NCBI GenBank assembly: GCA_029863665.1
Contig: JAOTUX010000007.1
Span: forward strand, 1-14,219
Source of the DNA: Nitrosopumilus sp.
Lineage (GTDB): Archaea > Thermoproteota > Nitrososphaeria > Nitrososphaerales > Nitrosopumilaceae
Length of the DNA: 14,219 nucleotides
Direction of reading: 5' to 3'
Shown here: positions 373 to 14,219 of the stretch, piece by piece
Layout of the letters: the number at the start of each line of letters is the position of its first letter
How positions within the stretch are numbered: position 1 is the stretch's first letter
Position numbers and translations under genes: made by a program
Notes under the pieces: generated by a model
What the model was told of the DNA's origin: nothing
Database searches by the model: none
The model's input: only the letters and a program-made list of their open reading frames with translations

Positions 373-530
373 ATTCTATTGTTGTTAAACGATGTACATG
401 TGCCAATAATTCTTTTACAAAAGATGTAGGTATTGGAGTCTGCATGAGATGTGGATTATCTTCATGCTCATGGTACGGATGTTTTGTTTTCGGATGTAAC
501 TGCTCTAGGGCAAAGGTGTTGAAAATATGA
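369..530 (+). CDS. Small Cys-rich (8 Cys in 53 aa) putative zinc-binding protein, absent from the ORF track
   Basis: Hand translation gives MNSIVVKRCTCANNSFTKDVGIGVCMRCGLSSCSWYGCFVFGCNCSRAKVLKI*. The ATG at 369-371 overlaps the upstream stop, and the TGA at 528-530 overlaps the primase ATG at 527 (ATGA at both ends). It exactly fills the gap between two co-directional genes. Confidence 0.5.
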   Translation: MNSIVVKRCTCANNSFTKDVGIGVCMRCGLSSCSWYGCFVFGCNCSRAKVLKI

Positions 531-2725
531 GTGACCATACCATTAAAGAAATCTACAAAAAGCAGGGAATCAACATTGTTCCAATTCCAAAAGGATCTGG
601 TAAAGCACTAAACATCAAGACAGGTTGGAGCAAATACCAGTATGAGATGTTTACAGGTGTAATACCAGATGACCAGGACTTTGCAGTAATTCTGGGAAGA
701 ATATCAGGCAATCTCATAGTACTAGATTTTGACAACTGTGATGATATCAACGAGATTAGTATGATGACACAAAATATTCTAAACAAAACTCTGGTGGTGC
801 GAACAGGGGACGGGTACCACGTCTACTTTAAGATAAATGAATTACCAGTACAGGCAAACACCTTTTTCTCAAAAGGAAAATACAGTATGGAGTTCAAAAG
901 TGATGGTGCGTATGTGGTTGGCGCATCATGCAACCACTATGACAAGGATGAGTCAGGACTGTACGTACTGACTGGCAAAAAATACACCATAATCTCAAAC
1001 ACCACATCAATCTATGATCTAAATGGTACTGCCACACAACTAATTGAGAAATTAAAAAATAATGGATGGATTCCAAAAAACCAAACAAATGGAAACGGGC
1101 ACCATACCATCATTCCAACCTCTGAGCTTGAAAAGGGAAACTGGTTATCTGGAGAGCGATACAACAATGGATTCAAGCTGGCACTAAGACGGTTCCATAT
1201 GGACTGGGAGTATGAAAAAATTCTAAACGAGGCAATAAAGATAAACAATTCATGCAATCCCCCACACAGCAATGTAGAGGTAGAGCGATGGGTAAATGAT
1301 GCGCATTCACAGTTTCAAAAAAACAGAGATGATCCTGAGCAAAAATACTTTAAACCTACAGATGATGAATCCAAGAAAGAAAAGAAAAACGCCAAGGCAC
1401 TAGTTGAGAACACATTACTTACAATCCAAAAGACTCACAATTTCAAGTGTCTGAGGGATTCAGATGAATTGTTGTGGTTTGATGGTAAAATTTACAGGCA
1501 AAATATTGCAGAGCCGCTAATTAAAGAAGAATGCGAGAAATGGATAGAGAACTGTAGCACATTTGATAGATGTGAAGTAATCAACAAGATAAAGGCGATA
1601 AACTATACTGACAGAGCTGAGTTTGACTCTGATCCTGACATTCAAACAGTTGAAAATTGTGTGTTAAATCTAAAGACACTAGAGACCATACAACACTCAC
1701 CATCAAATTTATCATGTGTAATGCTGCCAGTATCATACCATCCTATTGACATCAAGGTGAATACAGATTCCATTCTACAATATTTACATAATACACTGTT
1801 TCTAAAATATCTCACATCATGCTTTACCATAAATAGTAAGCTGGACCAAGAACAATTCTTTACAGTTTTAGAAATAATGGCATCATGTCTGATAAAAAAA
1901 CAGTTTGATAAAGCATTCATGTTTATTGGTTCAGGATCTAATGGTAAATCAGTACTACTTGATTATATAGAATCTCTTCTTGGTAAAGATAATGTCTCTA
2001 ACATTACAATCCATGACATTGAACTGGAACGATTCTCAAAGGCAGAATTATTTGGCAAGATGGCAAATGTATTTGCAGATATTGAAAGTAACGAGCTAAA
2101 AAAGACTGGAAACCTAAAGATTATAATTTCAGGTGACTCTATCACTGCTGAAAAGAAACACCGTCATCCATTCAAGTTCAAACCATACACAAAATTGATC
2201 TTCTCTGCAAATCGATTCCCATCAGTCCATGACCAATCTGATGGTTTCTTTAGAAGATTTGTAATTGTAAATTGGAAACGACAATTTACAGGAGAAGAAA
2301 AGAATCCAAATCTAAGAGAAGAACTAATTGCAGACAATGATGAGCAAAACAAGGTATTTTCTTTACTGGTTTTAATTGCAAGAAATCTTCGCATCCGCGG
2401 CAGATTCAAGCATGAGGACAACATTGAAGCACTACGCAAGCAATGGAATCAAAACAGTGATCCAATAATTCAGTTCATCAATGAGGTGGTAGTAGAGAAG
2501 GAAAATTCAGTGGTATCAAAGCGGGAGGTCTATTCCAGATATTGTGATTTTTGTATAGAACATGAAATTCCAGTTGTAACAATTAAGAGGTTTGGCATGA
2601 TCTTTGGCGAATATTACGAAACTGATCAAAGAAAAGATTCCAGTGGAATCAACAAAAAGTTCTGGATAGATATCCAGCTAAAGGTGCCTGTCATACAAAG
2701 GAGGTTAAAGGATTTTGATGCCTAG
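527..2725 (+). CDS. Bifunctional primase-polymerase (prim-pol) / D5-P4-type superfamily 3 helicase, replication protein of a mobile element
   Basis: The N-terminus carries the prim-pol signatures VLDFDN (DxD) and GDGYHVYF. The C-terminal half carries a P4/D5-type SF3 helicase: Walker A FIGSGSNGKS, Walker B-like NVFADIE, motif C IFSANRFP and arginine finger FFRRFVIVNW. A GGTG Shine-Dalgarno-like string sits 8-13 nt upstream. Confidence 0.9.
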   Translation: MSDHTIKEIYKKQGINIVPIPKGSGKALNIKTGWSKYQYEMFTGVIPDDQDFAVILGRISGNLIVLDFDNCDDINEISMMTQNILNKTLVVRTGDGYHVYFKINELPVQANTFFSKGKYSMEFKSDGAYVVGASCNHYDKDESGLYVLTGKKYTIISNTTSIYDLNGTATQLIEKLKNNGWIPKNQTNGNGHHTIIPTSELEKGNWLSGERYNNGFKLALRRFHMDWEYEKILNEAIKINNSCNPPHSNVEVERWVNDAHSQFQKNRDDPEQKYFKPTDDESKKEKKNAKALVENTLLTIQKTHNFKCLRDSDELLWFDGKIYRQNIAEPLIKEECEKWIENCSTFDRCEVINKIKAINYTDRAEFDSDPDIQTVENCVLNLKTLETIQHSPSNLSCVMLPVSYHPIDIKVNTDSILQYLHNTLFLKYLTSCFTINSKLDQEQFFTVLEIMASCLIKKQFDKAFMFIGSGSNGKSVLLDYIESLLGKDNVSNITIHDIELERFSKAELFGKMANVFADIESNELKKTGNLKIIISGDSITAEKKHRHPFKFKPYTKLIFSANRFPSVHDQSDGFFRRFVIVNWKRQFTGEEKNPNLREELIADNDEQNKVFSLLVLIARNLRIRGRFKHEDNIEALRKQWNQNSDPIIQFINEVVVEKENSVVSKREVYSRYCDFCIEHEIPVVTIKRFGMIFGEYYETDQRKDSSGINKKFWIDIQLKVPVIQRRLKDFDA

Positions 2726-2877: not shown

Positions 2878-3591
2878 TTGACTAGTCGCAAGCACTTTTC
2901 CTGGAAGGAATCCCTTATCCCGCAATCAAAAAGAGCAATACTGATAGAAAAAGACAACAAGCATTTCTACAAAACACCCCAAGGTCATACCTATCCTTCA
3001 GCAACTACCATGCTATCGCAAACCATGTCACCAGAGAAGAAAAACTCTTTGAAGGAATGGAGAAAAAGAGAAACAAAAGCAGATGAGATAACAAAACGTG
3101 CAACAGATATTGGCACATTTGTCCATAAACTAGCCGAAGATTATCTTAACAACAGGTATGATGATACAAGAAACCAAAATAGCATTGAAACACAACATTC
3201 TCAAATAATATGGAAACATTTCAGACAACTGCAACCATTTCTAAACAAGATGAATAACATCTGTGAAACTGAGATTCCGTTATACCATGACTATCTTATG
3301 TTTGGAGGAACGTCCGACTGCATTGCAGAGTATGGTGGAACCCTTAGCATAATTGATTTCAAAACAAGCAGAGCAGAAAAATATGAAGGATACATTGAAG
3401 ATTATTTTCTGCAGGCAACATTGTATTCAATGATGTACCACAATCAAACTGGAATCGCAATCTCACAGATTGTAATTCTAATATCTGGTGAAGATGGAAC
3501 ATCCAGAGAATTTGTAAAAAACATTGATGACTATGTAGACTTGTTGTTTCAAAGAATTTCTCAGTTTAATATTTTGGAGGCTAAAAATTGA
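2878..3591 (+). CDS. PD-(D/E)XK superfamily nuclease (RecB/lambda-exonuclease-like fold; not Cas4)
   Basis: Motifs in order are GGTSDCIAEY (D), LSIIDFKTS (D/ExK) and YFLQATLYSMMY (QxxxY). The N-terminal YPSATTML string is common in phage or plasmid exonucleases. There is no C-terminal 4-Cys cluster. Start is TTG with AGAGGT about 12 nt upstream. Confidence 0.75.
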   Translation: MTSRKHFSWKESLIPQSKRAILIEKDNKHFYKTPQGHTYPSATTMLSQTMSPEKKNSLKEWRKRETKADEITKRATDIGTFVHKLAEDYLNNRYDDTRNQNSIETQHSQIIWKHFRQLQPFLNKMNNICETEIPLYHDYLMFGGTSDCIAEYGGTLSIIDFKTSRAEKYEGYIEDYFLQATLYSMMYHNQTGIAISQIVILISGEDGTSREFVKNIDDYVDLLFQRISQFNILEAKN

Positions 3592-3860
3592 GAGAACCAC
3601 TCCTTGAAAGGTCTTTTGTTGTTACTTGTAAAAATAGACCACCAAAAAATGGCAAAAGTTGCACAGGATTGCTTGCAGGAGGCGCTTGTCGTGGAATTTG
3701 TACAAGATATGCAATCAAGACAAAGTGGGGACAAAAAAAATATGAATTAGGATTGAGGTTTTGCAGTTATTGTAGGGTGTGGTTTGATGATGAGTGTAAA
3801 ATTTGTTGCATATGCTGTAAAAAACGAGTTCGCCACAAAAGACGGGACAAACAAAAATGA
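3588..3860 (+). CDS. Cys-rich zinc-finger protein with a basic C-terminal tail (probable nucleic-acid binding)
   Basis: The 90-aa protein has several Cys pairs (CRGIC, CSYC, CKICCICC) and a tail KKRVRHKRRDKQK. Its TTG start overlaps the upstream stop and its TGA overlaps the downstream ATG (3857-3860), so it appears translationally coupled within the operon. Confidence 0.55.
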   Translation: MREPLLERSFVVTCKNRPPKNGKSCTGLLAGGACRGICTRYAIKTKWGQKKYELGLRFCSYCRVWFDDECKICCICCKKRVRHKRRDKQK

Positions 3861-4324
3861 GTTCAAGATCAGTACAGCATCTTCATTCGATTAATGTTCA
3901 AGATGAGTATGGTACTCCCAAGGAATTATTTCAAAATATCTGCAAAAAACATGACATTTATCCACAAATTGATATCTGTGCTAGTCATACAAACCATGTC
4001 TTACCAAACTATATCACAAAAGAGCAGAATTGTTTTGATCATTCCATAACAAAAGATTTTTTCATGAATCCTCCATATTCGCAAGTCTCCGAGTTTATGG
4101 AATTTGCATATTTGCAACACAAAACAAACAACGTGTCTTGCTTGATATTGACTTATTCCAAGACAGACACCATTTGGTGGCACAAATTTGTGGAAGGCAA
4201 ATCTAAAGTTCACTTTATCAAGGGCAGAATCAGGTTTTTAGATGAATGGGGTATTCCAACTAGCAATGTGGCACCGTATCCCAGCTGCTGGATTGTCTTT
4301 AGAAAAAATAGACATGAAAAGTGA
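3857..4324 (+). CDS. Phage-type DNA N6-adenine methyltransferase (small Dam family), apparently orphan
   Basis: YGTPKELF near the N-terminus, QIDICAS, catalytic FFMNPPYS (NPPY), then TIWWHKFV and FIKGRIRF. This is the order and spacing characteristic of the short phage Dam family. The protein is 155 aa. Confidence 0.85.
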   Translation: MSSRSVQHLHSINVQDEYGTPKELFQNICKKHDIYPQIDICASHTNHVLPNYITKEQNCFDHSITKDFFMNPPYSQVSEFMEFAYLQHKTNNVSCLILTYSKTDTIWWHKFVEGKSKVHFIKGRIRFLDEWGIPTSNVAPYPSCWIVFRKNRHEK

Positions 4325-4430
4325 GTGTGAACGAGTTTTCTACAAAGAGTAAAAATGGCATCCCCCCGCTTTAGGCAGGAAAACATGTTATGGTCGTAAA
4401 GCTTTAGAATGTCTAATCTAAGAAAATATA

Positions 4431-5141
4431 GTGAGATATCCAAAAATAGATTTTAAGAAAATTGATCAATTCAAGGAAATTACTAATGACGATGAAGCTT
4501 TTAGTCTAATCCGAGAAGAATTATCATTAATTATGTCTAAGTTAGAAAAGGAAACAGAGCCAGTAATTGAAACGCAATTAAAAAACTACATAATAATCAG
4601 ACTGGTAACTCTATTAGAAGTATTTTTTCAAAATCAGGTTGTAAATTTAATTGACAATTATAAAATAAAACATAGTGATTTGTTTGTAAATGACGAAATA
4701 TCGATTTCAATTTCTAGCTTAGATAAATTACAAAATGCAAGCAAGGGCAAAATTATTGCAACCAGCTTGTCCTTTCATTCTTCGTCAGACATAGATTTTG
4801 CTTTTTCAAAACTTCTAAATGTTGAATTTTTGACTCAAATTAAGAAATTTAATGTGAATGAAGAAATACCCAATCCTTTCGCTCAAAATTGGGATAAATT
4901 TTTTGAGATTTACCACGAACGACATAAAACGGTGCATTCTATCTACTTATGCAAAAAATATAGTAAAAAACAAATTCGACAAATAATAGATGCAGCAGAG
5001 TGGTTAACCGTTTTATCAAATATTGTGATAATGGGAAAAATTCTTGAAACTATGGAGCTTTCGTTCAAAAACATACAACCAAAATTATATCGATGGTTGA
5101 CTGCCAATTTTTTTAGAAAACCAAAAAAAAAATCTAATTAG
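4431..5141 (+). CDS. HEPN-domain protein (RiboL-PSP/MAE_28990-like), putative RNase toxin or abortive-infection component
   Basis: A canonical Rx4H motif, ERHKTVH (R164..H169, nt 4920-4937), lies near the C-terminus. It is preceded by a helix LKNYIIIRLVTLLEVFFQNQV and a segment IIATSLSFHSSSDIDFAFSKLL, which resemble RiboL-PSP-type HEPN families. The start is GTG; the first in-frame ATG is at 4533. Confidence 0.5.
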   Translation: MRYPKIDFKKIDQFKEITNDDEAFSLIREELSLIMSKLEKETEPVIETQLKNYIIIRLVTLLEVFFQNQVVNLIDNYKIKHSDLFVNDEISISISSLDKLQNASKGKIIATSLSFHSSSDIDFAFSKLLNVEFLTQIKKFNVNEEIPNPFAQNWDKFFEIYHERHKTVHSIYLCKKYSKKQIRQIIDAAEWLTVLSNIVIMGKILETMELSFKNIQPKLYRWLTANFFRKPKKKSN

Positions 5142-5347
5142 TTACAATTCACTTTCAGGCTCATAACTCTCTTCATCAACCAATCAATCTCCTCATTTGA
5201 AATCAAATTAGAAACAATATCTGCAGGAATTGCAGCAGAATCACACTTTGTTTTATCATTGAGTGATTTTAATTCCGAAAACCAGTTTCTCTTCTTATCT
5301 GAGTTCAGATTAACCTTCTTCTGATATGATTCAATTTTACACATCAA
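5138..5347 (-). CDS. Small hypothetical protein (69 aa), convergent with and overlapping the stop of the HEPN gene
   Basis: ATG-initiated ORF. Its coding strand is purine-rich like the other genes here. Its stop TAA (complement of 5138-5140) overlaps the TAG at 5139-5141 of the + strand gene. The pattern KKVNLNS / DKKRNWFSELKSL / IPADIVSNLISNEE is compatible with a beta-alpha-alpha (RHH-like) fold, but this is unverified. Confidence 0.4.
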   Translation of the reverse strand: MMCKIESYQKKVNLNSDKKRNWFSELKSLNDKTKCDSAAIPADIVSNLISNEEIDWLMKRVMSLKVNCN

Positions 5348-5440
5348 GAAAATAAATCGTCATACTACAAAGACTAATTGTCACACTTATCAAGAATTAA
5401 ATTTTTAATTTTTACAGATATTTTATACCCATGCTTCTTC

Positions 5441-5992
5441 CTAATTTTGTTCTGTATATTCTAGAGTCTGCTTTGAAATCCCAAATCTCTTGATATCCTT
5501 TGGTTTCAATTCCAATATTCTTGATTTAAGTTTTTGAATTTCTGCGTCCCAATCCATCATTTCATCTCTTATTGTTAACTGGCTTTGCATTATCATTACT
5601 TTAGGATTAGACATTACTTTTTCAAGAACTTCTATTATGTTTTCAATAAAAAAGCAATTATGTCTCCAACTGGCATACGGTGGATCATCATGTTTTTCAA
5701 ATTTGAATAATATGCCCTGAATTTTACCATTATCGTTATTATCTTCATGTAATCCTGCCCCATGAGCCAAGTTTCTTACTATTGCAGGAATGTTTAATGT
5801 ATAGTAGTTCTTTTTCTTCTGATCATTCATGTGAAGTTCTTTTAAGACATGTTTGATTAAATTTGAATAACCCTTACCCATGAATTTTTTGTCTAATCCA
5901 CTGTTAATGCTCTTAAACATATTTTCTACATAAAATAATGCCACTGTAAGGAAAGAAATTCTATTCATCAAATCCCAATTATATATTTCCAA
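5441..5992 (-). CDS. Hypothetical protein with a HEPN-like RNLAHG string; function unknown
   Basis: 183-aa ORF with a TTG start. VRNLAHGAG (R73-H77, nt 5762-5776) resembles the R-N-x3-H-G core of HEPN/Abi_C families but is one residue shorter (Rx3H). The C-terminal KRFGISKQTLEY looks HTH-like. The frame stays open and coding-like up to 6088 with no ATG/GTG/TTG. Confidence 0.45.
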   Translation of the reverse strand: MEIYNWDLMNRISFLTVALFYVENMFKSINSGLDKKFMGKGYSNLIKHVLKELHMNDQKKKNYYTLNIPAIVRNLAHGAGLHEDNNDNGKIQGILFKFEKHDDPPYASWRHNCFFIENIIEVLEKVMSNPKVMIMQSQLTIRDEMMDWDAEIQKLKSRILELKPKDIKRFGISKQTLEYTEQN

Positions 5993-6103
5993 AGGATTTT
6001 CCTGTTTTTTGAACTCTAGTCTTTTGTTGTAAATTGACTCGATAAAATCTCTGTAAGGATATGTTGGAGAATCGTTATAACAAATTTTTTATCTAAAACT
6101 ATA

Positions 6104-6691
6104 ATGAGTAACAAAACTCAATACCAATTAACACAAGAACAAGCAAAAAAAGCCATCAAAATGTGCCTAGACAATGCGTGGTCATATCTTGAAGATGCTG
6201 ACATGTATATCGCAAACAACAGAACAGAGCATATAGCAATCCCAATTGCATTTGCAATGGAAGAAATCGGAAAGGCGAAAATCATTTATGATAAAATAGA
6301 GAAAAATAATTCAAAAATTCTTTTGTCAAATGATAAAGATGGTATCTACGATCATACAACGAAAATAAAGAAAACAATTTCATTAATTGAACTAGATTTT
6401 GATGATGATGTAGGAGAAGCAGTGATGATAGAACAATTAACTTTTGGTGGCTCTTTTGAATTTGAATATTTTATTGATCAATCAAAAATTTCAGATAAAA
6501 TAAAACAAGAAAATGAATTAAAAGATATAGGAAAACAAGGACATAAGATACGACTTGCAAGTTCATTTGTTGGCTTTGATGCTACCACTAGTGAGCCTAA
6601 AATAAAAAAATCTACAGTAGACTTGACTAAACTCATCAAAGCATTATACCAAATCATAACTGGATATCCCTCTTCATTTAACACCTATTGA
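6104..6691 (+). CDS. AbiV-family (HEPN_AbiV-like) abortive-infection protein homolog
   Basis: The N-terminal LDNAWSYLEDADMYIANNRTEHIAIPIAFAMEEIGKAKIIY matches the hallmark AbiV pattern (nA..ll.dA..L.....A..l...A.EE.GKa). A DHTTKIK string follows. Its 195 aa is close to lactococcal AbiV (about 200 aa). This is motif-level recognition only. Confidence 0.55.
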   Translation: MSNKTQYQLTQEQAKKAIKMCLDNAWSYLEDADMYIANNRTEHIAIPIAFAMEEIGKAKIIYDKIEKNNSKILLSNDKDGIYDHTTKIKKTISLIELDFDDDVGEAVMIEQLTFGGSFEFEYFIDQSKISDKIKQENELKDIGKQGHKIRLASSFVGFDATTSEPKIKKSTVDLTKLIKALYQIITGYPSSFNTY

Positions 6692-6847
6692 CTCTAAAAG
6701 GTAGAAAAATTATTACAACATTAAACTATTAGGTTATGGTATATCTATAAAACAAAATAACAAACAAACCATTTTCTTGATATAGCAATAATTATGAAAT
6801 TATTTTTTCGCTAATAACCTTATTAATCAATTACATGGGGCCAAATT

Positions 6848-7570
6848 ATGAGACAAAATTTAATCTCTTTACAATGTTACTGTGCAAAACCAGAAATTGT
6901 TTTTCTCCCCTTTGAAAACGAAACGGTCTGTAAAATATGCGGTGTGGTTCTACAAAACAATGAATCATCATACAACATAGAGCAAACAGTACCATATGAG
7001 ATGCTCTGCAAGACAAACCTCAATTTACACCAAAGAAAGCAAGTCGGTGGGGATCCACGTGATGAACAAATGATAACATCTACAAAATTTCATACAGAGT
7101 CAGATTCCCTCTTGGCATTCTCTGATGTCTGCCGCAAACTATCCCTTACTAGTGCCATCTCAGAGGACTCTTGGAAATCATTTTGCCATGACACCACAAA
7201 TCTAACAAAGGCAAAAAAGATGTGTCATGCAATATACCGGACTCTACAAAACAATGCAATCCCATATGATGAAAATATAGTTCAAAATATTATCTGTTGC
7301 AGCCTTGGTGTAAAAAACGCATCAGGCCCTAGAGGCATACAATTCAAGACTGATTCCTCTGCATTTACCTCAAAGGAGGTAAAGATGAGATTCTACCTGA
7401 ATTTATCAATTAAACAGGCACAAAATCAGTATGCTATATCTGATGTATCGGCACTGCAGAAAAATTCCAGAAACTATATGAATATCCTGATAGAGTCATT
7501 TCCAAACTCAGATTACAAGACCTTGGCAAAAAAGGCAACAGAGATGGCAAGACTGAGGTGTCTGAATTAA
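6848..7570 (+). CDS. Short TFB/TFIIB-like transcription factor (zinc ribbon plus apparently one cyclin-like repeat)
   Basis: The N-terminal ribbon CYC-x15-CKICGVVL (nt 6875-6952) resembles the TFB Cx2C-x15-17-Cx2CG(l/v)V(l/i) ribbon. Later, LSLTSAISEDSWKSF and KKMCHAIYRTLQNNAIPYDENIVQNI resemble the first cyclin repeat. At 240 aa it is shorter than cellular TFB (about 300 aa). Confidence 0.55.
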   Translation: MRQNLISLQCYCAKPEIVFLPFENETVCKICGVVLQNNESSYNIEQTVPYEMLCKTNLNLHQRKQVGGDPRDEQMITSTKFHTESDSLLAFSDVCRKLSLTSAISEDSWKSFCHDTTNLTKAKKMCHAIYRTLQNNAIPYDENIVQNIICCSLGVKNASGPRGIQFKTDSSAFTSKEVKMRFYLNLSIKQAQNQYAISDVSALQKNSRNYMNILIESFPNSDYKTLAKKATEMARLRCLN

Positions 7571-8676
7571 ACATCTCAACTGAAAATATGGTTCAGACCA
7601 TTCAGCCTGATTCAATTGTGTTGCTTTCAGAAAACATTGGAATTGTGATGGAGACAAATATCTTAAAGTACTCCTCAATGAAAACGCAAGACCTTCCAAT
7701 AGTTAGACTAGGAAAAGTAAATGACAAATTGTATGCCATAAATCACTATGATGTAGTACTTGGATGTAAACAGTCAAAAAATAATGCATTATGCACCATT
7801 GAAGAGTGTAAAAATATCTCAGATATTATAGTACAGCATTTTTGTGATGTACTATCTAGTGATATACTCAACACACCACTAGTTTACAATCTAGTTGATT
7901 CACTCCAAGAGAAATTAAAAACAGACAAGATTACAGTTCTAAAAATTCTTGGAATAGACAAACTCCAGTATTGTAGGTTGTTGATGGCAACTAACCATAT
8001 CTCAGAAGCTGCAATCTCAAAGCTAGAAGAACTGGTAAATGAACTCTCAAAGAGAAAAGGACTAACTGCAATTCAGGCAAGCACTCCAATTTATGTCCTA
8101 GAAAAGATATCTCGAATCACTGATGAATCACAACAAATTCAATTGATACACTTTATTGCGTCTGATCTAAGACCAAAAAGTGATTCAAGATTTTTCTGGA
8201 TGACACCAGAACAAATTGACTCCATAACTCAAATGATAAGACAAAATGCAACTCGTACAGAATATAGAGACGAGTCAACTGTTGCACAATTTGTCTTATC
8301 TGAAAATCTTGGAGAAAAAGAATCATCATCAAACAAAAACAAAAAACCAAAACCATCAAAAAAGACTAGAGAAATTCTTGAGGCCATTCCAAATATACTA
8401 GTCATTCCAGATGAGAAAGGAAACCCAGACATTTTAGTTGATAAAAAAACTGGTACAGTATCAAAAATAGATACATCATCAAACAAAAAAATCATAAAGA
8501 CAAGTCACATCCCATCAAAGAAGCTCTACTCCATACCATTTGATGTTGTAAATTTTCTTGAAATGGAGGGACAAATACGACATAAAAACATCACAGGTAC
8601 TGACAACCTCAAATTGTTCACAGATTCCCAGAAAGATTCTACACAAAGATACACAATATTTTGGAATGTATCATAG
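7558..8676 (+). CDS. Degenerate ParB-like N-terminal domain plus HTH protein with a lysine-rich low-complexity C-terminal region
   Basis: IQPDSIVLLSEN...LPIVRLGKVNDKLYAINHYDVVLGCKQ follows the ParB N-domain layout, but the GxxR box is replaced by NHYDVVLG. TVLKILGIDKLQYCRLLMATNHISEAAISKLEEL is a ParB-type HTH. The GTG start overlaps the upstream gene by 13 nt; an alternative ATG lies at 7588. Confidence 0.4.
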   Translation: MSELNISTENMVQTIQPDSIVLLSENIGIVMETNILKYSSMKTQDLPIVRLGKVNDKLYAINHYDVVLGCKQSKNNALCTIEECKNISDIIVQHFCDVLSSDILNTPLVYNLVDSLQEKLKTDKITVLKILGIDKLQYCRLLMATNHISEAAISKLEELVNELSKRKGLTAIQASTPIYVLEKISRITDESQQIQLIHFIASDLRPKSDSRFFWMTPEQIDSITQMIRQNATRTEYRDESTVAQFVLSENLGEKESSSNKNKKPKPSKKTREILEAIPNILVIPDEKGNPDILVDKKTGTVSKIDTSSNKKIIKTSHIPSKKLYSIPFDVVNFLEMEGQIRHKNITGTDNLKLFTDSQKDSTQRYTIFWNVS

Positions 8677-8679
8677 AAC

Positions 8680-9306
8680 TTGCAAAATAATAGAGATCTA
8701 TTATGGTATAGATGCAACATAAAGAGAAACTCTACAGGCTCAAAAATTCTTGAATCATCATATGTTTCAGGATTTTCTCTTTTAGAGATTTCAAAAAAGA
8801 CCAAAAAACAGTACAGATATACCAAAAAAATAGTTCTAGAGCTGAAATACTCTGGATATCTTGAATCAGAAAGCAAAGGGCGATATTCCATAACTCAGAA
8901 GGGTAGGTGGTTTGTCATATGTCAGAGACTTGGATTGTCTTTTTTGTCATTGTGTTTATTGGCTGAAGTTTATCACAGGGTCAATTCCAATCCAGAATTC
9001 TTTTACCAGTTTTCATCATTTAGGCAGTGTTATGAGACAGGATATGATGAGAATTTTACATATATGGCAATATATCGCAGACAAAACATTTCAAAATCCC
9101 TCAAACATTTGACATCAAGAAATCTAGTGTATGCATTAGGGGATTTTATCAAAATGACAAATACAATGATTGAATTTCTAAAAAAGTATCACCGAGATCT
9201 TGAATCGTTATTTTTGTGGTGCAGTGATATGTATGAAAAATGTATTTGCAATACAATTGAAAATAATAATTTTAATGCCAGTGGTATCTTGCAAGGATCC
9301 AATTAG
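8680..9306 (+). CDS. Winged helix-turn-helix DNA-binding protein (possibly two wHTH units)
   Basis: GFSLLEISKKTKKQYRYTKKIVLELKYSGYLESESKGRYSITQKGRWF is a classic wHTH with a wing hairpin. A second weaker unit lies around ISKSLKHLTSRNLVYALGDFIKMT. The TTG start is 3 nt after the upstream stop, and there is no in-frame ATG before the domain. Confidence 0.45.
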   Translation: MQNNRDLLWYRCNIKRNSTGSKILESSYVSGFSLLEISKKTKKQYRYTKKIVLELKYSGYLESESKGRYSITQKGRWFVICQRLGLSFLSLCLLAEVYHRVNSNPEFFYQFSSFRQCYETGYDENFTYMAIYRRQNISKSLKHLTSRNLVYALGDFIKMTNTMIEFLKKYHRDLESLFLWCSDMYEKCICNTIENNNFNASGILQGSN

Positions 9307-9383
9307 AGTGTCAAAAAATGCTACTTTGATTGGGTCTTTTGGTTTTATTCTATATGTTATGAGTGGTTGTGGAGTTTTTCCAG

Positions 9384-10037
9384 ATGAGAATAGTTTTGAT
9401 ACTAGTAATGTTTGGAGTAGCATCTATCTTTGACTATAAATCAAGAAAAGTTCCTGATGTTATCTGGATTGCTGGTATCAGTACAGGTGGAGTGATGTAT
9501 GTAATTGACTATGAAACATTTTCTGTATACCATGGAGTGAGCATTGTAACCTCTTGCTTTTTTGGTTTTATTTTGTACAGATTTAGGTTTGTCGGGATGG
9601 CAGACCTGTTTGGCATCATATCTGTTAGTGTGATACTACCAGTTCATTATACATTTGTAATGGTTCCAATATTAGGAACTATTTTGGCGCTGATTCTGGT
9701 CGTATCTACAATCATCTTGTACAATGTGACACTCAATGCAATTGACATGATGTCAAAAAGAAGACTATTTGGAGGATTTGCAGGGGAGCCGCCGTACAGA
9801 AAGTTCCTCGCAGTTTTCTTTATTCACAGAAAGAGAGGATACGAGAGATTTGTCATTTCAGCTGAGAGTCAATACCCGGCAATCCCAAAAAACAGGTCAT
9901 TTGTCCTGATATCTAGGAGCAAGGAAATTTCCCAGGTGGTGGGACTCGTGCAGAATGTGCCGCCATTTGTAGTGTTTATGATGATTGGAATGATCTTACT
10001 GTTGTTGCCTGAAATTCTGAATATAGTATTTTCTTAA
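9384..10037 (+). CDS. A24-family aspartic prepilin/preflagellin (archaellin) peptidase, polytopic membrane protein
   Basis: The first catalytic Asp lies in ASIFDYKSRKVPD and the second in a GxGD-like FVGMADLF about 57 residues later. There are several hydrophobic helices. I prefer ATG 9384 (GGAG about 10 nt upstream) over the tracked GTG at 9363. Confidence 0.75.
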   Translation: MRIVLILVMFGVASIFDYKSRKVPDVIWIAGISTGGVMYVIDYETFSVYHGVSIVTSCFFGFILYRFRFVGMADLFGIISVSVILPVHYTFVMVPILGTILALILVVSTIILYNVTLNAIDMMSKRRLFGGFAGEPPYRKFLAVFFIHRKRGYERFVISAESQYPAIPKNRSFVLISRSKEISQVVGLVQNVPPFVVFMMIGMILLLLPEILNIVFS

Positions 10038-10503: not shown

Positions 10504-13500
10504 ATGACCATACGAGATTTTTACCTAAAGATTGAACAAATTTCAAGTTATAGTCCAGTACACCCTGTTGACAAAGAGCCTCCGGGGGTGGAGTACAGTC
10601 GAGACTGTATGTATGGTGAAGGGCATGAGAATGGAAAAATACCACAAGCCGAAGTAGATGCCAGAACCCTTGACGCAATTGTATACCGGGAATACCTGGA
10701 TAAGGATTTTCTTATTCCAAAACCGGATAAAATGGTAGAATCGGATATCAATGAACCTGTGTTTGACAGTAGGATTGGAACTGTATTGTATGCTAGTCCT
10801 GGACAGACATTAAACATTCATGTTTTAAATGCAGATAACAAACCCCATTCCTTTCACATACATGGACTTGAATTTGGGATAGATTCAGACGGTGCTTGGC
10901 CCTTTGGTACACAAAATGAGGATGGCTCTAGATCAGATAGGATCTGTCCAGGAGAAAAATGGACTTACATCTTTAATGTCAGAGAGGAGATGATAGGGGT
11001 TTGGCCGTTCCATGATCATTTTGGGATGGTAGGAAAAAATATTGATAGAGGTTTGTTTGGAGGACTGATTGTTCAGCCAAAAGGCCAGATCACAATTCCG
11101 GAACTTGAAGTTTTTCCAAGAGAGTTTGAAGATTTGCTAGACAGGTATGTAAGAATCAAGGATATAATTGGTGAAGTTCCACAGCCTAGACCCAGACCAG
11201 ATCCTCCTCCCATATTTGAGAAAGACAGAGTATACATACGCGATCAAGTGGAATTTTTGAAAGAATGGTTGGGTGTTTTTATTGGAAAGCCACCAAAAAA
11301 GAAAAGAAAAACACTTCACGTTCCATTGTTTTTCCACAAAATGAAGAGTCATCAAAGCAAACCTGTTTTTGACACAGGAGACATAGAGGAATTAGGCGGA
11401 GAACACGAGGTTATTTTTAATAATCAGGGAGCCTTTGATTATTTTTGCATATACCATCCCATGATGGAAGGAAAAATCAATGTTGTCCCAGGAGGATCCC
11501 TTCTAGTTACAGTCAACATATTGGATAACCCTCAAATGGGATTTTATCCTCCAATAGTGGATATTGGAATAGGCGGAACTGTGAAATGGGTTAATCAAAG
11601 TCAGTTCCATCATACGGCTACTTCAAAGGAAGGTGCATCATTGGCCACCCATTGTTTTAATGGCAGAGGCTTTGTTGGAAACTCTCCTACCATTGTAGCT
11701 GAAAGTGGCCAGAAAATAAAATGGTATGTATTTAATTTGGATGTTGGTCACGAATGGCACAATTTTCATACACACTCACAAAGATGGAAATTAGGAAATG
11801 AAAACATTGATGTTAGAAGTTTAGGCCCTGCAGAATCATTTGCAGTTGAGACTACCGCACCGCCAGTCCTATTATTTCCAGATAAAGAGATGAATGATCT
11901 GCAAGAATGCAAAGTAAAGCCCAAAGATGCAAAGATATACAGACTCAAAGGAGATTTTGTATTTCACTGCCATGTTCACCATCATATGATGAATGGTATG
12001 GTAGGTTTGGTGCGCTCGTTCCAAAATGTTTGGCTAACTCCGGATATGATTACAAAGTTAAAAAAGACAAGAGGGTTTCCTCTTGATGATGGTACAAATA
12101 ATTGTCCAACACTTCCAGAAAGCTGTTCGAATTTAGATCTTGGGAGATGGGAAGAGATACCAGGTGATCCTGAAGTAACATTAATGCATTCTGTATTGTT
12201 ACCTAAAACACAAAAGGTCTTGTATTGGGGATATACAAGAGCAGATCAATCCAGGCTTTGGGATTATGGAACCAACACCTACTCTTCGCCAGTAAATCAA
12301 CCGGCTAGTTTACCCGGTGAAAATGAAAACACCTCCAATCTTTGGTCTGCAGAACATTCTTTTCTTGATGATACAGAGGGCACTGCGTTGATTCATGGAG
12401 GTTTAACTCAAGGACCAAATGGCACTCCAACTGAATCATTTCTTTTCAGTCCCTCAACACTTCAATGGAGCAAGACTAATTCAACAACGAATCCTAGATT
12501 TTATTCTACAACCATTACATTGGCTGATGGAAAATTAATTACCCTCTATGGTTCTAGTTCAAAATCCATCGAGGTGTATACGCCTGGAGCAGGTTGGGGA
12601 TCTCCAATCAATTTACCCTACCTTAACTACCGATATTATCCGTGGACATTTCTATTACCTGATGGCAGACTCTTTATTGCAGGGCCTGAATCTCCTACTC
12701 ACAGATTTGATTGGCAAAATCCAATAGTGGATCCTAACAACACTTGGAATACAAATGAGGGTACAAGAGATCAGTCTAGTCAAAACGGAACAGCAGTGAT
12801 ATTTCCGTTAAGACCGCCAAATTATGAACCAAGAGTTATGATTATGGGTGGAAGAAACCCAAATTTAATAAAATCATCTGAGACAATAGATCTTTCCTTG
12901 GGTGCCCCATCTTGGTCAAATCTGTCAGATATGAATGAGGCAAGAGGGAATCTCACTTCAGTATTGCTTCCAGATGGCAGAGTATTTGTTGCAGGCGGAA
13001 TACCAGGTGCACCAGGTGTGAACGATGGAGGTCCATCTGAGATATTTGATCCTCAAAATCCGAATGATGGATGGCAATTGGGACCAATAATGAAGTATCC
13101 GAGAAATTACCACTCTTCAATGATTTTATTGCCAGATGGTAGTATTCTAGCAGGAGGAGATCCTAGACAAGCAGGAAATCCAACTCCTCATGAAAGATAT
13201 TATCCTGGTTACTTTAACAAAACTAGACCACAAATTACAAACATTCCAAACACTACTGTAAACTATGGAAATAATTTTGATGTGCAAACTCCAAATTCAC
13301 CAGACATTACAGAAGTAGTTTTGATGTATCCTGGTGCTGTAACTCATAGCTTTAACATGACTCAGAGAATAATAGAATGTGAGATTGTAAATAATGTTGG
13401 AGGGATTGTACGGGTAAAAGCCCCAACAAATGGCAATATTGCACCACCCGGACACTATCTTGTTTTTATTCTTGATGCAAACAGAATACCTTCTACTGGT

Positions 13501-13524
13501 GAATGGATACGTCTTAGAAATTAG
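10504..13524 (+). CDS. Fusion protein: two-domain multicopper oxidase (ceruloplasmin-like cupredoxin pair) plus blue-copper motifs plus galactose/glyoxal-oxidase-like beta-propeller with DUF1929-type C-terminal domain
   Basis: The MCO ligand motifs are HSFHIHG (aa 115-121), WPFHDH (167-172), HNFHTH (419-424) and HCHVHHHMMNGM (488-499, HCH-x3-H-x4-M). A type 1 Cu loop FCIYHPMMEG sits at aa 314-323. The galactose-oxidase-like strings are PRFYSTTITLADGK (664-677), NYHSSMILLPDGSILAGG (868-885), AVTHSFNMTQR (945-955) and PPGHYLVFILDANRIPSTGEWIRL (981-1004). An in-frame TAA lies 18 nt upstream of the ATG, and there is no signal peptide. Confidence 0.9.
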   Translation: MTIRDFYLKIEQISSYSPVHPVDKEPPGVEYSRDCMYGEGHENGKIPQAEVDARTLDAIVYREYLDKDFLIPKPDKMVESDINEPVFDSRIGTVLYASPGQTLNIHVLNADNKPHSFHIHGLEFGIDSDGAWPFGTQNEDGSRSDRICPGEKWTYIFNVREEMIGVWPFHDHFGMVGKNIDRGLFGGLIVQPKGQITIPELEVFPREFEDLLDRYVRIKDIIGEVPQPRPRPDPPPIFEKDRVYIRDQVEFLKEWLGVFIGKPPKKKRKTLHVPLFFHKMKSHQSKPVFDTGDIEELGGEHEVIFNNQGAFDYFCIYHPMMEGKINVVPGGSLLVTVNILDNPQMGFYPPIVDIGIGGTVKWVNQSQFHHTATSKEGASLATHCFNGRGFVGNSPTIVAESGQKIKWYVFNLDVGHEWHNFHTHSQRWKLGNENIDVRSLGPAESFAVETTAPPVLLFPDKEMNDLQECKVKPKDAKIYRLKGDFVFHCHVHHHMMNGMVGLVRSFQNVWLTPDMITKLKKTRGFPLDDGTNNCPTLPESCSNLDLGRWEEIPGDPEVTLMHSVLLPKTQKVLYWGYTRADQSRLWDYGTNTYSSPVNQPASLPGENENTSNLWSAEHSFLDDTEGTALIHGGLTQGPNGTPTESFLFSPSTLQWSKTNSTTNPRFYSTTITLADGKLITLYGSSSKSIEVYTPGAGWGSPINLPYLNYRYYPWTFLLPDGRLFIAGPESPTHRFDWQNPIVDPNNTWNTNEGTRDQSSQNGTAVIFPLRPPNYEPRVMIMGGRNPNLIKSSETIDLSLGAPSWSNLSDMNEARGNLTSVLLPDGRVFVAGGIPGAPGVNDGGPSEIFDPQNPNDGWQLGPIMKYPRNYHSSMILLPDGSILAGGDPRQAGNPTPHERYYPGYFNKTRPQITNIPNTTVNYGNNFDVQTPNSPDITEVVLMYPGAVTHSFNMTQRIIECEIVNNVGGIVRVKAPTNGNIAPPGHYLVFILDANRIPSTGEWIRLRN

Positions 13525-13677: not shown

Positions 13678-13913
13678 AATAACTTTCATGTTATAATAAT
13701 TTCTTGAATTTTTTTAGTTATCTAATTCCTTGTAGAAATTTCAGTAAAAATATCCTTCTTTTATCAAAATTTCTCATACCATTTTGATTTCATTTGGGTA
13801 AATTCTGGTCACTATCACAAGAAAAGCAGTCAGGAGTACTGGATAAAACAAGAAACTTTTTGGGACAAACAAATGCCAGCATCTCTTGTTGTTCCCTAAA
13901 AGTTCCAATATCA

Positions 13914-14219
13914 ATGGATGTAAAATCTGCAATCCAAACAATTCCGGGATTGATTTCATCTACACCCGAAGCAATTCGCTCATTTGAGATATGGTGGGAC
14001 GGAAAACAAAAGCAGCTAAGGTATGTTTTATCTGCACAAAACAATCTAGATCTGGCAAACTACAAAATATCTTTTCAGAATGTGTATCCCAACGTATCTT
14101 TTGTATCTCAACAGGAAACTATTCCTGAATGGTTCTCTCCACATTCATCCTATGAAATATTTGACGTATCACTCCAACATGGCCATTATTCCACTATATT
14201 TGATATTGCAACACATCAG
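13914..14219 (+). CDS. Hypothetical protein, N-terminal 102 codons (3' end outside the window)
   Basis: From ATG 13914 the frame is open to the last base: MDVKSAIQTIPGLISSTPEAIRSFEIWWDGKQKQLRYVLSAQNNLDLANYKISFQNVYPNVSFVSQQETIPEWF... It is absent from the track because no stop is reached. The composition is non-repetitive and protein-like. I recognise no motif. Confidence 0.5.
   Translation, partial: MDVKSAIQTIPGLISSTPEAIRSFEIWWDGKQKQLRYVLSAQNNLDLANYKISFQNVYPNVSFVSQQETIPEWFSPHSSYEIFDVSLQHGHYSTIFDIATHQ

Follow-up and report, generated by a model that had tools for sequence, protein, structure and literature searches.

Family-1 casposons, of which a protein-primed DNA polymerase B (pPolB) is a hallmark, have their target in the 3' end of aEF-2 in N. 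koreensis (PMC4046053), and the target of the N. koreensis casposase has been defined experimentally as GTTTT|ATTGATAAAGAGT, that is a leader followed by a target site duplication (TSD) of 13 bp, the exact length measured in vitro for this enzyme (PMC8464041). One casposon, NitEve-C1, carries a HEPN nuclease (PMC6563490). The integrative and conjugative elements (ICEs) published for Thaumarchaeota comprise a TFIIB gene upstream of a ParB-like gene, a prepilin peptidase, VirD4 and VirB4 ATPases, variable replication modules and multicopper oxidases as cargo (PMC6563490). Regarding the HEPN families, RiboL-PSP-HEPN has been described in bacteria, fused to an endoribonuclease L-PSP or in operon with ParB, and members of the AbiV family keep the basic residue of the catalytic motif, lack its canonical histidine and have an alternative upstream histidine together with an acidic Ex3[KR] motif (PMC3710099). 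The present analysis deals with a 14,219-nt stretch of DNA (the window), a contig of 14.2 kb from the metagenome-assembled genome (MAG) of a Nitrosopumilus sp., and with an AT-rich islet of four open reading frames (ORF1 to ORF4) carried by it, for which an initial annotation had proposed a cluster of HEPN-type proteins working as one defence or toxin system. With a probability of about 0.6, the islet is ICE cargo assembled from family-1 casposon leftovers in which independent HEPN effector genes have been retained.

The backbone of the element resembles thaumarchaeal ICEs (Krupovic et al. 2019) in its TFIIB-like gene with a downstream partner gene, prepilin-peptidase-like protein, VirD4/TraG-like ATPase, variable replication module and multicopper oxidase cargo. 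On the other hand, a nested casposon remnant and a HEPN pair as ICE cargo set it apart from the published ICE survey, in which HEPN is mentioned for one casposon only (PMC6563490). The islet shares with the Nitrosopumilus family-1 casposons NitAR1-C1 and NitSJ-C1 a 5' fragment of cas1, an aEF-2-derived leader and TSD-like target and a conserved left end, and two casposon loci, L010 and L011, have the same AbiV-like gene upstream of cas1. In contrast to these casposons, it holds no intact cas1, no pPolB and no terminal inverted repeat pair, and it sits in an ICE, not at aEF-2, which makes it a remnant only. These casposon remnants were overlooked by the initial annotation.

The islet is a real accessory insert, compositionally distinct, in a mobile conjugative element. 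Windowed composition gave a G+C content of 0.293 for the ~2.5 kb at ~4325-6790 and of 0.360 for the remainder of the contig, the lowest-G+C 2.47-kb window of the contig starting at 4401. At third codon positions, the G+C content (GC3) was 0.22-0.25 in ORF1 and ORF4 against 0.26-0.40 in the backbone genes. The four ORFs follow the strand order +,-,-,+ while the + strand encodes every other long ORF of the window. The coordinates and strands of the ORFs as well as the AT-richness relative to the flanks are therefore as first described, the variable segment (~4325-6790) being slightly wider than the span of 4431-6691 given then. A related element, L013, also a Nitrosopumilus MAG contig, has a backbone in common with the window at 58-75% amino acid identity; homology to it stops at the stop codon of the Dam gene and restarts at ~6770-6800, and between its Dam and TFIIB genes L013 carries three small genes unrelated to the islet (two Zn-finger proteins and one Lys-rich protein). 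No tRNA was found in the islet, and the sole Rfam match for a structured RNA was below threshold and taken as chance. The features of the islet are the following.

4325-4352, + strand: left border, similar to the C-terminal tail of aEF-2 (VNEF, then a 2-nt deletion), with GTTTT leader and TSD-like 13-mer CTACAAAGAGTAA at 4335-4352
4353-4397, + strand: casposon-left-end sequence and candidate terminal repeat, AAATGGCATCCCCCCGCTTTAGGCAGGAAAAC..., in common with L002, L011 and L010
4388-4412, + strand: promoter-like box with B recognition element (BRE) and TATA box, GTCGTAAAGCTTTAGAATGT, ~25-30 nt upstream of the ORF1 start
4431-5141, + strand: ORF1, 236 aa
5138-5347, - strand: ORF2, 69 aa
5365-5377, + strand: second copy of the 13-mer, CTACAAAGACTAA, a direct repeat of 4340-4352 (12/13) that brackets ORF1 and ORF2
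5441-5992, - strand: ORF3, 183 aa
5441-~6058, - strand: ORF3', that is ORF 5441-5992 plus startless homology to ~6058
6056-6103, + strand: upstream block of the AbiV cassette (promoter region), conserved with the AbiV upstream regions of L010 and L011 and abutting the ORF3' truncation point
6104-6691, + strand: ORF4, 195 aa
6685-6773, + strand: frameshifted pseudogene fragment cas1', which covers ~30 codons from the start of a family-1 casposase and has lost one codon
6775-6847, + strand: right border and resumption of the backbone, TFIIB-like promoter region

ORF4 is an AbiV-family HEPN protein by profile matching, with scores above both curated cut-offs (HEPN_AbiV, PF18728: 43.7 bits, cut-off 27.1; NCBIfam AbiV_defense, TIGR04498: 35 bits, cut-off 27), in agreement with the AbiV likeness noticed at the outset and with NCBI, which already annotates it as AbiV family. 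The 53 close homologues retrieved all have a precomputed HEPN_AbiV match, and the few whose source is named are Nitrosopumilus MAG proteins, ORF4 itself, like ORF1, being identical to an NCBI MAG protein. The residues invariant in 24 homologues include E53/E54, K57, H84, H147 and R150, with no histidine 4-6 residues after R150; this pattern fits the description of the AbiV family, the positions of the residues on the HEPN helices being predicted. A search of PDB by sequence and profile with ORF4 gave no match. The ratio of nonsynonymous to synonymous substitution rates (dN/dS) was 0.37 relative to the L010 copy. As with Lactococcus lactis AbiV, the protein forms a single-gene module of ~200 aa that passes both curated thresholds and lacks a canonical Rx4-6H, with R150, H84 and E53...K57 in place. 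It differs from the lactococcal protein in being archaeal (Nitrosopumilus), in residing on casposons and ICEs and not on a lactococcal chromosome, in being missed by the PADLOC models, in having no known phage-protein trigger and in the overlap of its homologue with the casposase gene by 4 nt in two loci.

ORF1 is, as judged from its relatives, a putative RNase of the RiboL-PSP-type HEPN class and belongs to a small thaumarchaeal family. Its six homologues (40-76% identity) all match RiboL-PSP-HEPN (PF18735) across nearly the whole model; with a gathering threshold of 28.4 bits, P0004 (29.2 bits) and P0006 (33.4 bits) score above and P0002, P0003 and P0007 just below. The motif ERHKTVH contains R164-x4-H169, of which both R164 and H169 are invariant in the six homologues, so that the canonical Rx4H seen by the initial annotation stands, and in an all-helical AlphaFold2 model (predicted local distance difference test, pLDDT, of 71) the two residues are located at the end of a predicted helix (154-169). 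No match to the ORF1 family was found in PDB by sequence or profile. Relative to the 76%-identical copy in L002, dN/dS was 0.06-0.11, and ORF1 is therefore considered a functional gene. The box at 4388-4412 is presumably an archaeal promoter, and its spacing of ~25-30 nt from the start would therefore give a leaderless transcript; a similar BRE/TATA-like box is kept upstream of the ORF1 homologues in four loci and also before the AbiV homologue in L012. ORF1 is monocistronic with a promoter-like box of its own, and has no L-PSP domain, no L-PSP fusion and no operon with ParB. The near-full-model match of its homologues, the strict Rx4H and the stand-alone format of ~230 aa are as in RiboL-PSP-HEPN (PF18735; Anantharaman et al. 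2013), whereas its archaeal origin, the absence of a fusion to L-PSP, its position at a casposon-type left end and its own score below detection are unlike that family as described. The ORF1 homologue of L002 is split at 2285-2295, just before the Rx4H motif, by a T-run that is 2 nt shorter (T4 vs T6), and downstream of this frameshift dN/dS is still ~0.06; either faulty assembly of the homopolymer or inactivation in the very recent past may account for the split.

The neighbouring ORF2 is probably a real gene, albeit an orphan small ORF: its frame and 17/21 residues are conserved in L002, where it is again convergent with, and placed after, the ORF1 homologue. In the window it is convergent with ORF1, the stop codons overlapping, and its pattern of G+C at first and third codon positions (GC1/GC3) is atypical. 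It matched no family in Pfam, NCBIfam or PADLOC and bears no ribbon-helix-helix (RHH) or other signature.

Evidence for a casposon origin of the islet comes from both of its ends. On the right, cas1' (6685-6773) aligns by nucleotide and by protein with the cas1 starts located downstream of the AbiV homologues in L010 and L011, its translations LTLKGRK / KNYYNIKLLGYGISIKQNNKQTI aligning with Cas1 LTLKGRKNHYNIKFLKGYGHSI. On the left, the border sequence at 4325-4352, which starts immediately after the Dam stop codon, aligns with GTTAAC(G/A)AGTT(T/C)ATCGACAAAGAGTAA of L002 and L011 (GTT AAC (A/G)AG TT(T/C) ATC GAC AAA GAG TAA), which encodes VN(K/E)FIDKE followed by a stop and is distinguished from its N. 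koreensis counterpart by synonymous changes alone. This border resembles the aEF-2-tail target of family-1 casposons with its GTTTT leader and TSD. The ~45 nt that follow the TSD-like motif are conserved in the window, L002, L011 and L010, and in L011 and L010 they lie between the TSD-like motif and the AbiV gene; no inverted partner of this left-end sequence was found in the window. Inside the islet, the block upstream of ORF4 (6056-6103) starts exactly where the homology of ORF3 ends, which means that recombination fused an AbiV-cas1 cassette to internal sequence of a gene of the ORF3 family. The window holds no pPolB gene, and of a casposase gene the islet holds ~30 frameshifted codons only.

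In L010 (6001-6908) and L011 (8001-9598), the AbiV homologue overlaps the start of an intact family-1 cas1 by 4 nt in an apparent operon, and L011 also has a pPolB gene; a translationally coupled HEPN gene and casposase may be a regular casposon feature. A comparable arrangement within a different element is seen in L012, where an AbiV gene is accompanied by an aEF-2-tail-like motif and by the decayed start of cas1; it suggests retention of AbiV after decay of the casposon. Copies of the aEF-2-tail-like VN(E/K)FIDKE-stop outside aEF-2 were observed in L002 (1716-1745), L011 (7866-7892), L012 (7895-7920), L016 (7617-7643, - strand) and the window (4325-4352), where they adjoin genes of the ORF1, AbiV or ORF3 families.

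ORF3 is a 5'-truncated remnant from an uncharacterised thaumarchaeal family. An exhaustive phmmer search retrieved 167 relatives of 230-270 aa, some of which start with a zinc ribbon, and ORF3 aligns to their C-terminal half only; upstream of its TTG start the frame stays open and homologous for ~22 more codons, ending at ~6058-6090 without a start codon, hence the truncation. No remnants of the missing N-terminus were found elsewhere in the window. Since ~85 N-terminal codons and an obvious promoter are missing, ORF3' is probably inert, an inactive relic. The near-HEPN string RNLAHG on which the initial annotation had drawn is indeed present and conserved, N74 and H77 being invariant and R73 nearly so in 43 homologues, and the family motifs are E23-x3-K27 and R73-N74-x2-H77-x2-G80. 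The spacing R-x3-H, however, lies outside the R-x4-6-H of HEPN proteins, and no HEPN or Abi_C match was obtained for ORF3 with Pfam, NCBIfam, PADLOC, PDB sequences or Foldseek, nor any match in BFVD. Abi_C (PF14355) matched neither ORF3 (E<=10) nor any of 43 relatives (E<=1), and the PDB search by sequence and profile with the family returned nothing; the Abi_C and RHH signatures brought up for this locus are thus absent from ORF3 and ORF2, respectively. In HEPN proteins, helix 3 ends with the R/H motif, in which a polar residue follows the arginine, and the preceding core helix contains Ex3[KR] (PMC3710099). In the AlphaFold2 model of ORF3 (pLDDT 92.5), R73-N74..H77 ends helix 61-77 and E23-x3-K27 is located in helix 3-32, with an extra helix between them, so that the placement agrees with HEPN catalytic-motif positions in a way that is suggestive only. 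Alignment of the ORF3 family with the ORF1 and ORF4 families by hhalign gave no match, in a test made uninformative by the same outcome for ORF1 against ORF4, its positive control. A single metagenome scan for the ORF3 family yielded one short contig.

Co-occurrence was tested by tblastn of all window proteins against 13 distinct related loci. A second islet gene was found in these loci once only, ORF2 beside the ORF1 homologue in L002, and the intact islet occurs in only four other assemblies, which hold the same element at >=99.7% identity. Each family was met alone in L001, L009, L010, L011, L012, L015, L016, L018, L019-21 and L022. AbiV homologues lie directly upstream of cas1 in L010 and L011, and in L012 in an element with an integrase and a DUF87/TraG ATPase. 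ORF1 homologues lie in L001 in an element with a DUF87/TraG ATPase, in L022 next to a GmrSD_N nuclease, and in L002. ORF3 homologues lie in L016 with MazE nearby, in L018 with a Cas1 fragment nearby, in L019-21, and on the short contigs L009 and L015. These neighbourhoods support, by context, a conflict or defence role for each family separately. Scans of IMG/VR yielded no match to either the AbiV or the ORF1 family, nor to the left-end motif or the casposase.

Two side observations concern these surroundings. In L019 (2844-4761; also L020 and L021), the gene located 44 nt upstream of the ORF3-family gene encodes a TIR-domain protein whose C-terminal domain is cupredoxin/plastocyanin-like, and near the ORF3-family gene of L019-21 there is also a STAND-like NTPase of 974 aa that contains an HSDR_N nuclease domain, surroundings that look like a thaumarchaeal defence island. 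Logan contigs of SRR7134473 and SRR7132224 begin and end precisely at 4224 and 6840, positions that lie beyond the islet junctions by ~100 nt and ~50 nt, respectively. They hint at variation between strains around the islet in these two samples; being too far from the junctions, the contig ends were not used as evidence of presence or absence among strains.

The tight packing of four genes in a single AT-rich block, the HEPN-type motifs in two or three of the products and the identity of the block across five assemblies are what speaks for one coordinated multi-HEPN defence or toxin system. However, those five assemblies represent a single element, the families are single in every other locus examined (ORF1 with ORF2 in L002 excepted), ORF3 breaks off at a recombination junction, the mosaic block includes a fragment of cas1, and the four genes have separate transcription directions and promoters. 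Since the families occur singly elsewhere, a conserved four-gene system was rejected; the absent co-occurrence outside one element lineage, an outcome that the initial annotation had itself named as refuting, largely refutes such a system, which is left highly improbable. What persists of the earlier proposal is narrower: a cluster of HEPN proteins holds for ORF1 (through its homologues) and ORF4 and is not supported for ORF3 and ORF2, for which no HEPN match was obtained, and a locus of defence or competition on a mobile element holds insofar as the region is accessory and relatives of three families are found in defence or mobile contexts. An alternative in which ORF1 would be a HEPN toxin, ORF2 or the convergent ORF2/ORF3 antisense its antidote and AbiV a second toxin, together stabilising the conjugative element as addiction modules, is unlikely. 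ORF1 and ORF2 do form a co-inherited convergent pair with overlapping stops that recurs in L002, HEPN domains are common as toxins of toxin-antitoxin (TA) loci (PMC3710099) and such loci are often on mobile elements (PMC6563490), but neither ORF2 nor its neighbours have an MNT, RHH or other known antitoxin domain, no antitoxin family was matched by ORF2, L001 has the more distant ORF1 homologue but no homologue of ORF2 (L022 holds only ~150 nt beyond its ORF1 homologue), and AbiV homologues stand alone or with cas1.

A somewhat better but still improbable alternative is that the islet is decaying junk, the non-functional debris of old casposon insertions. It accounts for the cas1 pseudogene fragment, the truncated ORF3, the degenerate TSD-like motif with its 2-nt deletion and the frameshifted ORF1 homologue of L002. 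It sits badly with the full length of ORF1 and ORF4 and the presence in them of all family-invariant residues, with the dN/dS values of both genes (0.06-0.11 and 0.37), with the conservation of the promoter-like blocks upstream of them, and with L012, in which the same AbiV gene is kept beside a decayed cas1 start in a different element.

The favoured explanation, ICE cargo made of casposon leftovers, would combine these data as follows. The variable cargo between the Dam and TFIIB-like genes would be a patchwork of family-1 casposon fragments which reads, from left to right, as an aEF-2-tail target with terminal sequence, ORF1 with its own promoter, ORF2, ORF3', ORF4 and a dead casposase start, the transposition genes (cas1 and pPolB) having been lost and the HEPN genes kept. 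ORF1 and ORF4 would act as independent single-gene effectors of RNase type, normally quiescent; they would be triggered when a virus infects or a rival element enters the cell, leading to translation shutdown or RNA degradation in an abortive-infection manner, and either abortive-infection protection or inter-element exclusion would benefit both the ICE and its host. The family assignments, the truncations and junctions, the purifying selection and the absent co-occurrence are observations. RNase activity, trigger and defence phenotype of ORF1 and ORF4 are drawn by analogy from what is known of HEPN and Abi proteins (PMC3710099). Several points weigh against the favoured explanation. ORF1 itself has no Pfam match, its assignment to a family being transitive through the homologues; Foldseek comparisons of the ORF1 and ORF3 models with PDB gave nothing significant; and the PADLOC models, Abi systems included, produced 0 matches to ORF1-ORF4 at E<=10, so that none of the four was recognised in this check. 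A terminal inverted repeat pair and a clear right casposon end were not found, the aEF-2-tail motif outside aEF-2 is not explained by simple casposon integration, and the fragments may have reached the ICE by either transposition or recombination. Finally, the context evidence comes from about a dozen loci, many of which are short metagenomic contigs.

A further reading, which goes beyond the favoured one and is doubtful, joins two proposals: that a casposase inserted the ORF1+ORF2 unit as a cassette without terminal inverted repeats, and that the ORF3 family is an unrecognised thaumarchaeal HEPN-like clade, in which the catalytic motif would be a compressed RNxxH and some members carry a zinc ribbon at the N-terminus. 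The former builds on the 1.0-kb unit 4353-5364, which stands directly after the GTTTT leader and is flanked by 13-bp direct repeats; the casposase target sequence would then be GAGTTTTCTACAAAGAGTAA and the junction GTTTT|C. For the 13-mer direct repeat, 0.04 matches were expected by shuffling, and it was the sole match in a scan of all upstream 13-mers, while comparable scans of other loci, run as controls, each produced about one match by chance. No inverted repeats joining the ends of the unit were found above the shuffled background. A third, weaker copy of the 13-mer, CTATAATGAGTAA (6099-6111, 2 mismatches), overlaps the AbiV start codon and is probably due to chance, because its sequence is conserved with other AbiV starts. 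Casposase-mediated insertion of the 1-kb unit is put forward here as a hypothesis only. If true, ORF1+ORF2 would be a natural case of a casposase integrating arbitrary DNA, akin to an oversized CRISPR spacer, and the first cargo beside casposon left ends would preferentially be HEPN genes of AbiV-like or RiboL-PSP-like type.

Outside the islet, the window holds the following genes.

527-2725, + strand: D5-type primase-helicase, backbone
2878-3591, + strand: PD-(D/E)XK nuclease, backbone
3588-3860, + strand: Cys-rich 90-aa protein, backbone
3857-4324, + strand: Dam-type N6-adenine methyltransferase (Pfam Dam, 7e-22), last backbone gene before the islet
6848-7570, + strand: TFIIB-like gene (weak Pfam Zn_Ribbon_TF match), overlapping the gene at 7558-8676
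7558-8676, + strand: gene for a 372-aa protein, overlapped by the TFIIB-like gene
8680-9306, + strand: winged-helix (wHTH) protein, backbone
9363-10037, + strand: A24 prepilin-peptidase-like membrane protein, backbone
10504-13524, + strand: multicopper-oxidase/galactose-oxidase-like fusion, 1006 aa

Judged by gene content, the host is an ICE-like conjugative element of Nitrosopumilus, the gene set of which fits the published thaumarchaeal ICEs (PMC6563490), and the overlap of the TFIIB-like gene with the next gene is the arrangement typical of these. The backbone shared with L013 consists of a Zn-finger protein, Dam (75% identical), the TFIIB-like protein (73% identical), the 372-aa protein, the wHTH protein, the A24 peptidase and a VirD4/TraG-like gene, synteny extending from the TFIIB-like gene through the A24 peptidase-like gene. 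The last ~480 nt of the window (13736-14218) match the start of the L013 gene for a VirD4/TraG-type coupling protein, the VirD4/TraG identity being seen in the L013 orthologue only; VirB4 and an integrase fall outside the window. L013 is without the multicopper oxidase, and the segment 10013-13736, absent from L013, is therefore a second cargo region of the ICE.

Some further observations were made on the backbone. The replication module has been exchanged between the otherwise syntenic elements, with a D5-type primase-helicase in the window (527-2725) and an MCM helicase in L013 (43-978). The 1006-aa fusion (10504-13524) combines multicopper-oxidase/cupredoxin domains, a galactose/glyoxal-oxidase-like Kelch propeller and a GO-like E-set domain. 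The Cys-rich 90-aa protein (3588-3860) has its orthologue at L013 1370-1621 and also matches L013 2134-2370, a small Cys-rich protein of the L013 variable region; the second small Cys-rich protein of that region (2690-2893) resembles the latter by eye only, with no tblastn match.

As to earlier work, a thaumarchaeal casposon with a HEPN nuclease and thaumarchaeal ICEs rich in cargo had been recorded (PMC6563490), and the AbiV annotation of ORF4 was in place at NCBI. New are the casposon remnant nested in an ICE and, in two loci, the overlap of AbiV and casposase genes; the position of a RiboL-PSP-type HEPN gene at a left end of casposon type and the ORF3 family, which is uncharacterised, are new as well.

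Taken together, the locus reveals no new multi-gene system. In ammonia-oxidising Thaumarchaeota, which are globally abundant and for which genes of antiviral and inter-element conflict are little recorded, AbiV-like and RiboL-PSP-like HEPN genes circulate, within Nitrosopumilus, on casposons and conjugative elements, and they stay under purifying selection after the carrier transposon has decayed. The ICE-nested casposon remnant bears on the spread of casposons beyond the aEF-2 site, and the locus provides concrete candidates for the first archaeal tests of both HEPN families.

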